The notes under the pieces are model-generated. The model was not told the DNA's origin, did no database searches, and saw only the letters and a program-made list of their open reading frames with translations. A stretch of DNA of 64,000 bases from Escherichia coli (lineage in GTDB: Bacteria; Pseudomonadota; Gammaproteobacteria; Enterobacterales; Enterobacteriaceae): NCBI RefSeq assembly GCF_003334405.1, contig NZ_QOWM01000007.1, one strand, 5' to 3'. A program made the position numbers and the translations under genes. Below are positions 59,893 to 60,610 of the stretch, piece after piece. Positions within the stretch are counted from its first letter, which is position 1. Each line of letters begins with the position of its first letter.

Positions 59893-60228
59893 TCAATGAT
59901 TTTTTTTATTCTTATCTTTTATTTTATTTACTGTTTCAATGCAATCAGCGGCAAGTTGGAGTGGATTTAGATTTTTCAGATATGGTCTTATGATCTTTCC
60001 CTTACTTAATAAATAGCATGTATAGGATTCGGAAAGTCCAGCATCTATTTTGTACCTCATTATATTAGATAAGGATGTGAGAAATTCCTTGTTATCATTC
60101 GCAGCCATATATGCCAGTCCGAGTTCAGCCTCTGCGGCCTTACAGGCAAAATAGCTTAGTGAACACGCTTTTCGTCCCTCTTTAGTACTGGCTGATATTA
60201 GTGCCCATAATATTGCTTTGTCTGCCAA
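59893..60228 (-). CDS. yibV: hypothetical protein, 111 aa, last gene of the rhsA-distal orphan array (YibV-like; possible immunity protein)
   Basis: Intact ORF in very AT-rich DNA immediately downstream of a toxin-like remnant ORF; size and position match what I recall of K-12 yibV, but the sequence identity is not verified. Confidence 0.5.
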   Translation of the reverse strand: MADKAILWALISASTKEGRKACSLSYFACKAAEAELGLAYMAANDNKEFLTSLSNIMRYKIDAGLSESYTCYLLSKGKIIRPYLKNLNPLQLAADCIETVNKIKDKNKKNH

Positions 60229-60316
60229 ATCTAACTCTCTCTGAAATTGTCTTGCAGTAACTGCACTCGCAGAAATAGAGAAAAAAATACAATTGTTAAT
60301 AACCTTGCCATATTTT

Positions 60317-60610
60317 TTAGTCCGTAACTGTTAATGTGCTATCTGGCTCTGAAAATATTAACTCATTTAATTTTTGCATGTCATTAGATAAACCAGTTAT
60401 ACAACCCTCGGAACAGAATCGAGGTCCTAAAGACGGACCAAAAGCGTTTAAACAACTATGTATTGAAAATCCATTGCGATTATAAGTTCCTGTATTAACT
60501 GACGGTACTAATCGTATGCCGTCAGGTTTTCTATTGCTTGCTCCCGGGTCATTAACATTCCAACTCCATAGGCCTTGAGGTATTGGCCATCTATTTATAA
60601 ATGTGTACAA
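60317..60610 (-). CDS. hypothetical 97-aa protein, possible remnant of an orphan Rhs C-terminal toxin domain
   Basis: ORF lies directly downstream, on the same strand, of a degenerate copy of the rhs core 3' end (60768-60915); no recognisable family. Confidence 0.35.
   Translation of the reverse strand: MYTFINRWPIPQGLWSWNVNDPGASNRKPDGIRLVPSVNTGTYNRNGFSIHSCLNAFGPSLGPRFCSEGCITGLSNDMQKLNELIFSEPDSTLTVTD

Follow-up and report, generated by a model that had tools for sequence, protein, structure and literature searches.

Near one end of a 64,000-nucleotide stretch of Escherichia coli DNA (contig NZ_QOWM01000007.1; hereafter the window), two small open reading frames (ORFs) encoding 97 and 111 aa follow a broken Rhs core remnant. 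The question they raise is whether they form a third toxin-immunity pair, decayed or still functional, or are small proteins unrelated to the Rhs element. We conclude, with a probability of roughly 0.9, that they are the remains of a single Rhs toxin tip and its Imm57 immunity gene, a tip that was displaced downstream and is decaying. The two frames are the longest open pieces left of this pair, and neither is expected to be functional. Left with neither a full core nor a promoter nor a delivery domain, both genes are proposed to have decayed, and we infer that both have lost their function. Of the options raised in the original prediction, a decayed third pair following a degenerate Rhs core remnant was thus the right one, and a still functional pair finds no support in the locus as it stands.

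The window is K-12-like DNA and contains the distal end of the rhsA locus. The ORFs are surrounded by lldP, yibL, mtlR, mtlD, mtlA, yibI and yibH, and beyond yibH the minus strand carries the end of rhsA, yibA, an orphan Rhs fragment (rhsJ/yibJ) and yibG. Both ORFs lie at their predicted positions on the minus strand, and the degenerate core remnant upstream of them was confirmed. The GC content of the two-ORF region, predicted to be about 30%, was measured as 36%, and that of the toxin tip is 37%, compared with 58-60% in the neighbouring Rhs core segments; an AT-rich tip set against a GC-rich core, with a small immunity gene behind it, is what an orphan Rhs tip should look like. A conserved Rhs core end also precedes the tip, as in other orphan tips, albeit with three stop codons. 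In K-12, the PGAP pipeline annotates positions 60683-60901 as [quoted passage not shown], and the same core-remnant call is made in O157:H7. The intact allele of this gene matches the NCBIfam model RHS_core with E=5e-16, and Rhs_assc_core scores above its cut-off. The features on which the argument rests are as follows.

60752-60922, minus strand: Rhs core-end stub (PxxxxDPxGL region) with three in-frame stop codons, from translation.
60595-60756, minus strand: first third of the toxin tip (...CKNNPRCTHL, then a stop) in a frame of its own, from translation and an indel map.
60317-60610, minus strand: 97-aa ORF with a TTG start, from the ORF list.
60401-60460, minus strand: catalytic motif H-x15-S-E-G-C, from direct reading of the sequence.
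59790-60311, minus strand: whole Imm57 pseudogene, split over two frames (the intact gene has 173 codons), from PGAP and reconstruction.
60231-60311, minus strand: original ATG and signal-peptide start, with a stop after 26 codons (MARLLTIVFFSLFLRVQLLQDNFRES, then the stop), from translation.
60281-60289, minus strand: 1-base deletion in codon 9, beside a run of seven T (near 60288), from alignment.
59893-60228, minus strand: 111-aa ORF (YibV) with a TTG start, holding a whole Pfam Imm57 domain, from the ORF list, UniProt and Pfam.
59900-59907, minus strand: run of eight A (seven in the intact allele), a +1 change near 59907, from alignment.
59790-59899, minus strand: Imm57 C-terminal tail (...KKIIDINSVNICSDDKNIKLRVNSTIMAIDDSIKCIDE, then a stop), back in the frame of the original ATG, from translation.

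Two open frames of at least 97 codons arose in fewer than 1% of 2,000 shuffles of a 1.5-kb sequence at 35% GC. This rarity, together with the degenerate core upstream, identifies both frames as true relics of coding sequence. Described originally as intact reading frames, each of them proved to be a fragment between two frameshifts of a longer gene.

The 97-aa frame and the toxin tip

The 97-aa ORF sits where a CT domain would follow the core, as the original prediction correctly pointed out. The last ~91 residues correspond to the C-terminal two thirds of a Tlde1-like L,D-peptidase toxin domain, and the exact 97-aa sequence is named in databases either "type IV secretion protein Rhs" or "DUF2778 domain-containing protein". 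Searched on its own, the product gave weak Pfam matches that fall below significance (Tlde1_dom, E=0.008; YkuD, E=0.038), and NCBIfam returned no match for either the 97-aa or the 111-aa ORF other than a chance HisIE match (E=0.015). The tip of the intact allele matches Pfam Tlde1_dom (PF10908), covering positions 10-106 of the 120 in the model, with E=6.3e-7. When 1.84 billion representative proteins were searched exhaustively, 169 relatives of the 145-residue tip emerged; a word-indexed protein search gave toxin relatives that were short or partial only. An alignment of 38 of the 169 relatives (A2) shows no variation at residues C14, G35, C43, G56, P84, S115, G117 and C118, and almost none at H99.

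The AlphaFold model of the intact tip (pLDDT 91.9, pTM 0.88) adopts the L,D-transpeptidase fold, and the same fold is found in the first 37 Foldseek matches to this model. The catalytic motif is retained within the 97-aa ORF, where H51 (codon CAT, 60458-60460) is separated by 15 residues from S67-E-G-C70 (Cys codon TGT, 60401-60403). Judged by its sequence, H-x15-S-E-G-C conforms to HXX14-17[S/T]HGCh, the motif published for L,D-transpeptidases (10.1101/2020.02.18.954545; PMC9638812). A sequence search of the PDB, using either the intact tip alone or the 38-sequence profile, found no relevant match, which places the tip on a distant branch of the superfamily and leaves the link to Tlde1a resting on Pfam and the predicted fold. 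DUF2778/Tlde1 is a periplasm-acting L,D-carboxypeptidase for which Rhs fusions are known (10.1101/2020.02.18.954545; PMC9638812), and Rhs-DUF2778 fusions have been noted in Shigella and E. coli relatives (10.1101/2020.02.18.954545). L,D-carboxypeptidase or exchange activity on peptidoglycan and periplasmic toxicity are known within this group for Salmonella Tlde1a only (10.1101/2020.02.18.954545; PMC9638812).

Comparison with the intact allele locates two lesions in the toxin gene: a +1 insertion near 60758, right at the DPxGL motif, and a -1 deletion near 60597 that restores the frame. Between them, the first third of the tip (60595-60756) is read in a frame that differs from those of both the core stub and the 97-aa ORF. 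The second lesion also created the TTG start of the 97-aa ORF, whose first codons (MYTFIN) are read-through across the frameshift. The ORF is consequently without the first ~48 residues of the domain. Residues 1-52 of the 145-residue tip are encoded in the other frame, and this portion comprises three β-strands of the model along with the invariant C14, G35 and C43; a complete toxin domain in a single reading frame is not present in the window. A 9-base deletion was also considered as a toxin lesion and was dropped, as the intact full-length allele of strain 2013C-4282 has the same GNN-repeat length.

It might be argued that the ORFs function as they stand, the 97-aa product as a toxin and the 111-aa product as a cytoplasmic, antitoxin-like partner, in the manner of the Salmonella orphan Rhs module, which is reported to work within the very cell that makes it, much as a type II toxin-antitoxin pair does (PMC7043789). 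Both frames are open, the catalytic His and Cys are retained, and the sequences are nearly fixed in 3,360 genomes. We consider this reading highly improbable, since the 97-aa fragment has lost roughly a third of its domain (~48 residues) and begins at a TTG made by a frameshift, and since the target of the enzyme class, peptidoglycan, is periplasmic and the fragment carries no export signal. The near-identity among genomes reflects recent common descent and gives no sign of constraint, and dN/dS among the decayed copies is 0.4-0.7, on very few changes.

YibV and the split Imm57 gene

The 111-aa ORF covers the whole Pfam Imm57 model (PF15596; E=1.1e-48, model positions 1-100 of 100), and its exact sequence is the UniProt entry "Protein YibV". 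The original description "no recognisable family" therefore fails for this frame; the 97-aa ORF taken alone gives only the weak Pfam matches listed above. The YibV frame is open for 145 codons from stop to stop, extending back to 60330, but contains no ATG, GTG or TTG before 60228. In K-12 and O157:H7, PGAP annotates the longer interval 59790-60311 as "Imm57 family immunity protein, frameshifted", and the intact immunity allele itself matches Pfam Imm57 with E=2e-44. The gene starts 6 bases past the toxin stop codon.

Two lesions split this gene. At codon 9 the intact allele reads GTGCTTTTTTTC and the window reads GTATTTTTTTC; the deleted base shifts the original ATG and leader into a frame that soon stops, where the same stretch of the intact allele (60231-60311 in the window) reads MARLLTIVLFFSISANA/VTV. 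At the other end, the extra A in the A run closes the 111-aa frame early (...KNKKNH, then a stop), and the conserved Imm57 tail (...ICSDDKNIKLRVNSTIMAIDDSIKCIDE, then a stop), with two family-invariant cysteines, is left stranded in the original frame. The 111-aa ORF is the segment between these two lesions and stops at about residue 139 of the gene.

The consequences of the truncation were judged from a comparison of six Imm57 members (A3), made up of two E. coli alleles, one protein that is 52% identical and three that are 24-31% identical, from metagenome contigs. By inspection, all compared members, including the five divergent proteins, have a hydrophobic N-terminal leader, and cysteines 50, 99, 124, 147 and 170 are invariant among them. 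Leader and invariant cysteines together suggest that Imm57 is an exported, disulfide-bonded protein. The AlphaFold model of Imm57 is all-helical (pLDDT 84), with the last helix (residues 150-165) confidently packed (pLDDT 92-96). YibV is without the leader, helix 150-165, and C147 and C170, two of the five invariant cysteines; the leader in the window is in a different frame from the Imm57 domain, which is thereby left with no export signal. A Foldseek search of the PDB with the Imm57 model gave nothing better than E=0.7. The profile and structure searches that had been proposed as a check thus identified Imm57 directly and the Tlde1/L,D-peptidase class by way of the intact allele, and returned no solved structural relative for Imm57. 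To our knowledge, no member of the Imm57 family has been tested experimentally.

These matches also decide whether the ORFs could be chance open frames or unrelated small proteins. Both begin at TTG, no ribosome-binding site or promoter stands out, and a scan of 59300-61500 found 10 promoter-like sites compared with 11.5 expected and no terminator, all of which could be taken in favour of such a view. It is refuted by the homology results, namely the strength of the Imm57 match and the collinearity of the region, by alignment, with intact toxin-immunity pairs, and the rarity of two such frames in the shuffles adds to this; we assign it a negligible probability.

Some YibV product is nevertheless conceivable, given the open Imm57 domain, the 145-codon frame and a reported 7.9-fold rise in RNA covering yibV after AZT (PMC11228462). 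YibV is still listed in the uncharacterised "y-ome" of E. coli K-12 (PMC11551758). It is best read as a fragment of an Imm57 pseudogene rather than as a protein whose function is yet to be found, and for annotation this is a matter of tidying.

Intact relatives, lesion variation and the history of the pair

Intact versions of both genes exist at the same locus in other strains. In 2013C-4282 and Ec73552, yibF is followed by a single intact Rhs gene (1389 or 1392 codons), an intact 173-codon Imm57 gene and yibH (Rhs and Imm57 accessions WP_106907706.1, WP_392711716.1 and WP_000113245.1). By eye, the first residues of the full-length Rhs protein form a PAAR-like N-terminus, and the tip lies at the C-terminus. 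Strain F2_81 also carries the tip on an intact full-length Rhs protein (1389-1392 aa across the three strains), and its Imm57 gene has the same codon-9 deletion as K-12; either some immunity survives the deletion, or this strain can do without it, for example through lack of sibling delivery. In MS 69-1 and RIVM_C039227, an intact Imm57 gene stands beside a truncated toxin, and toxin-free immunity islands that include Imm57 exist as well.

The pairing recurs in metagenomic sequences. Among the representative proteins, eight of 1086-1616 aa match the tip at their C-terminus. Two metagenomic Rhs proteins with RHS_repeat and YD-shell domains, P0094 (1385 aa) and P0098 (1570 aa), end in tips that are 52% and 50% identical to that of the window, and on two unrelated metagenome contigs an Imm57 gene directly follows each tip-bearing Rhs gene. 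Imm57 is accordingly found directly after an L,D-peptidase toxin in the window, at the intact E. coli loci and on both of these contigs.

A DNA search with 1.6 kb around the ORFs found the region in 3,731 of 5,426 complete E. coli genomes, always on the chromosome. The decayed allele is present at 99% identity or more in 3,360 of the 5,426, with K-12 strains among the essentially identical matches, and about 294 E. coli genomes carry an intact-type allele. Lesions were surveyed in 13 sampled genomes with the K-12-type allele. The toxin lesions are common to nearly all 13, one strain being free of the first insertion. The Imm57 codon-9 deletion is present in all 12 of 12 copies at the rhsA locus; ETEC4070 has a second copy, linked to rhsB, that is free of it. 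Depending on the strain, the A run has 6, 7, 8 or 10 bases, or is replaced by other small indels, so that the Imm57-domain frame ends after 103, 104, 111, 112, 145 or 146 codons. Conservation as intact frames in related genomes, whose absence was put forward originally as a refuting outcome, gives a mixed picture: the toxin is broken in the same way in nearly all sampled genomes, and the end of the Imm57-domain frame varies by strain. PGAP calls every sampled copy a pseudogene.

The K-12-type and intact-type alleles are old, with a dS between them of 0.31 (toxin) and 0.15 (Imm57). The accompanying dN/dS of 0.2-0.3 indicates that constraint acted on both lineages through most of their past and that the decay is comparatively recent. 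Among decayed copies, the higher dN/dS quoted above is based on just 4-11 changes per comparison, too small a number to judge whether selection has relaxed.

The variable A run is the pattern of a drifting pseudogene homopolymer and would also be expected of a phase-variable gene. One alternative is that the Imm57 remnant is still partly protective, as a switchable orphan immunity gene. The leader and domain could be rejoined by a -1 ribosomal slip or RNA-polymerase stutter on the seven-T run, giving MARLLTIVFFFSISASA..., or translation of the domain could begin weakly from an in-frame ATT; attachment of the C-terminal tail and helix would in that case depend on the variable A run, which would switch the gene on or off. 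Several observations are in keeping with such a switch. Both Imm57 lesions sit at homopolymer runs, the A run varies in length among alleles that are otherwise 99.5% identical, and the domain frame runs to its natural stop in 6 of the 13 sampled K-12-type genomes. F2_81 pairs an intact full-length tip-bearing Rhs with the T-run-deleted Imm57. The database protein P0237 has exactly the sequence that a T-run slip would give (MARLLTIVFFFSISASA...; the junction TIVFFFSISASAVTAR could arise only by that slip), public 169-aa "Imm57" calls start with MNNCIFF, and Imm57 is known from islands free of the toxin.

The window, however, would need two corrections, at both the T run and the A run, and for this reason we rate the switch as improbable. 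A run of seven bases makes a poor slippage site when set against the known cases, which have nine or more, and the T-run register offers no canonical X XXY YYZ heptamer. A pseudogene in neutral decay yields just such run-length variation, the pseudogene label applies to every sampled copy, and no protein-level expression data were found for the Imm57 remnant. Were the switch real, most E. coli would still be shielded, at a low level or in a phase-variable manner, from neighbours that carry this L,D-peptidase Rhs tip.

On the preferred reading of a displaced and decaying tip-Imm57 pair, the history of the locus can be outlined. [quoted passage not shown] There, its Tlde1-related cysteine L,D-peptidase domain would be expected, from the activity of its relatives, to attack the peptide stems of peptidoglycan, and Imm57, as a small, all-helical, cysteine-rich periplasmic protein, would probably bind and block the toxin in siblings. 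Newer tips, first that of rhsA with yibA and later rhsJ with yibG, are proposed to have been inserted at the core end in the K-12 lineage, shoving the tip-Imm57 pair downstream and up against yibH. The pair would then have decayed: the core stub acquired three stops, a pair of frameshifts threw the first third of the toxin out of frame, and two further frameshifts cut the Imm57 domain off from its signal peptide and last helix.

Three arrangements have been seen: the tip on the main gene (2013C-4282, Ec73552 and F2_81), an intact Imm57 beside a truncated toxin, and the full decay of K-12. The pair is the last element before yibH in every one of them, a position in line with the tip-displacement model, whereby recombination joins new tips to the core and the old ones, moved downstream, fall silent (PMC2935791). 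Among the tips of the rhsA locus, that of this pair is most likely the oldest, an order of insertion deduced from present-day arrangements.

Comparison with known systems

The closest system is the Rhs-Imm57 pair of 2013C-4282 and Ec73552, which occupies the same site (yibF ... yibH) with the same gene order and a similarly short intergenic gap. Compared with the repaired window sequence, its toxin shows 86% amino acid identity and its Imm57 90%. It differs in having a complete PAAR-Rhs and both genes intact, whereas the window has a 170-base core stub and frameshifts in both genes. These intact E. coli alleles would provide a convenient test system for the candidate pair of L,D-peptidase Rhs tip and Imm57.

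Tlde1a/Tldi1a of Salmonella Typhimurium (PDB 7UMA) is a T6SS effector with L,D-carboxypeptidase and D-amino-acid exchange activities. The tip resembles Tlde1a in its Tlde1_dom match, its His/Cys motif, its periplasmic target (deduced for the tip) and the adjacent small secreted immunity protein. The two share only ~20% identity, however, and Tlde1a was not reached by sequence in the PDB. The His-Cys spacing of the tip is long, or canonical (x15 before SxGC), whereas that of DUF2778 is shorter according to the Tlde1 paper, and the tip has an extra Cys-rich N-terminal part (ASGNN..CKNNPxC) relative to Tlde1a. Delivery would be as an Rhs tip here and is as free Hcp cargo for Tlde1a, and the immunity protein is the all-helical Imm57 here and DUF2195 for Tlde1a.

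The pairing itself was anticipated by Zhang et al. (2012; PMC3482391), who predicted from gene neighbourhoods a Tox-LD-peptidase accompanied by Imm16 or Imm57 and associated with RHS repeats and T6SS. Their description of Imm57 as mostly alpha with conserved D, SE and C agrees with alignment A3 and the all-helical model obtained here. The toxin-Imm57 pairing of the window is the same as theirs, in a copy that has decayed. Toxin-immunity gene decay of this kind is already known as a class, and the present case is already labelled in public annotation (RefSeq).

Displaced or "dissociated" Rhs tips and orphan Rhs modules have been described by Jackson et al. (2009; PMC2935791) and Koskiniemi et al. 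(2014; PMC3967940). The window shares with these systems a series of tips that lie downstream of the main rhs gene, each consisting of a core piece, an AT-rich tip and a small gene, and in both decay is most advanced in the last tip. In Salmonella the orphan has stayed intact, and recombination with the main gene can bring it back into use, in contrast with the stub of ~170 bases with stops and a frameshift in the window; with a core stub so short and broken, simple recombination would not restore a working toxin. Set beside these systems, the locus offers a clean worked example of tip displacement: depending on the strain, the toxin-immunity pair is the active tip of the main Rhs gene or an intact orphan, and in K-12 and O157:H7 it lies in ruins.

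Divergence and frame variation of the two cassette alleles

The K-12-type allele, the decayed form carried in the window, was compared with the intact-type allele, which has an unbroken toxin tip and a 173-codon Imm57 gene (window 59790-60848 against locus L002 6380-7455). Synonymous divergence between the two is 0.31 for the toxin and only 0.15 for Imm57. Typical synonymous divergence of E. coli core genes is far below both values, which suggests that the two alleles were either acquired separately or are very old and have been retained at the locus.

Variation is also found close to where the Imm57 domain ends: a run of A (window 59900-59907) is 6, 7, 8 or 10 bases long in different alleles, as judged from the window and the same site in comparison loci L007, L008, L009 and L019-L026. 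Alleles that differ in the length of this run are ~99.5% identical elsewhere, and the Imm57 domain frame reaches its natural stop codon in 6 of the 13 sampled genomes. For the toxin, a K-12-type variant in the Logan assemblies (database protein P0062, three member sequences) is present as a single unbroken 131-aa frame, MLSCVSD…CTFINRWPIPQG…, in which either the two toxin pieces have been reunited by an additional small indel or a sequencing error is present.

Toxin and Imm57 genes in other arrangements

E. coli ETEC4070 has a second copy of the cassette, 96.5% identical, at its rhsB locus (L008 4456-7471), adjoining yhhJ; it comprises yibG, the core stub, the toxin remnant and Imm57. This copy has the same toxin lesions and an Imm57 gene free of the codon-9 deletion, a combination showing that the cassette was transferred from one rhs locus to another once the toxin had decayed.

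In E. coli F2_81 (L014 2172-6876), the L,D-peptidase tip is carried on an intact full-length Rhs protein of 1392 aa. The Imm57 gene 3' of it has the one-base codon-9 deletion observed in K-12, so that the ATG frame runs for 26 codons and then stops. E105 (L011) likewise encodes an intact Rhs with this tip followed by a codon-9-deleted Imm57; both loci have a toxin with no obviously working immunity gene.

An Imm57 gene with 55% identity also lies within a toxin-free row of small genes in two Logan assemblies (SRR31736489 and ERR5002088; L015 4268-12170 and L016), together with a second, weak Imm57, Rap1a, DUF7668 and MafI2. This row looks like an orphan immunity gene island.

The rhsJ/yibJ and yibG pair

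Two further genes lie upstream of the 97-aa and 111-aa ORFs:

61408-62352, minus strand: orphan rhsJ/yibJ frame, open for 314 codons
60935-61396, minus strand: yibG, following rhsJ/yibJ and encoding a Sel1-repeat protein whose N-terminus is hydrophobic

In rhsJ/yibJ, Pfam matches are confined to residues 48-83, where the RHS core motif is recognised; the tip of ~170 residues matches no Pfam family. Compared with the 97-aa and 111-aa ORFs, this second pair seems far better preserved.
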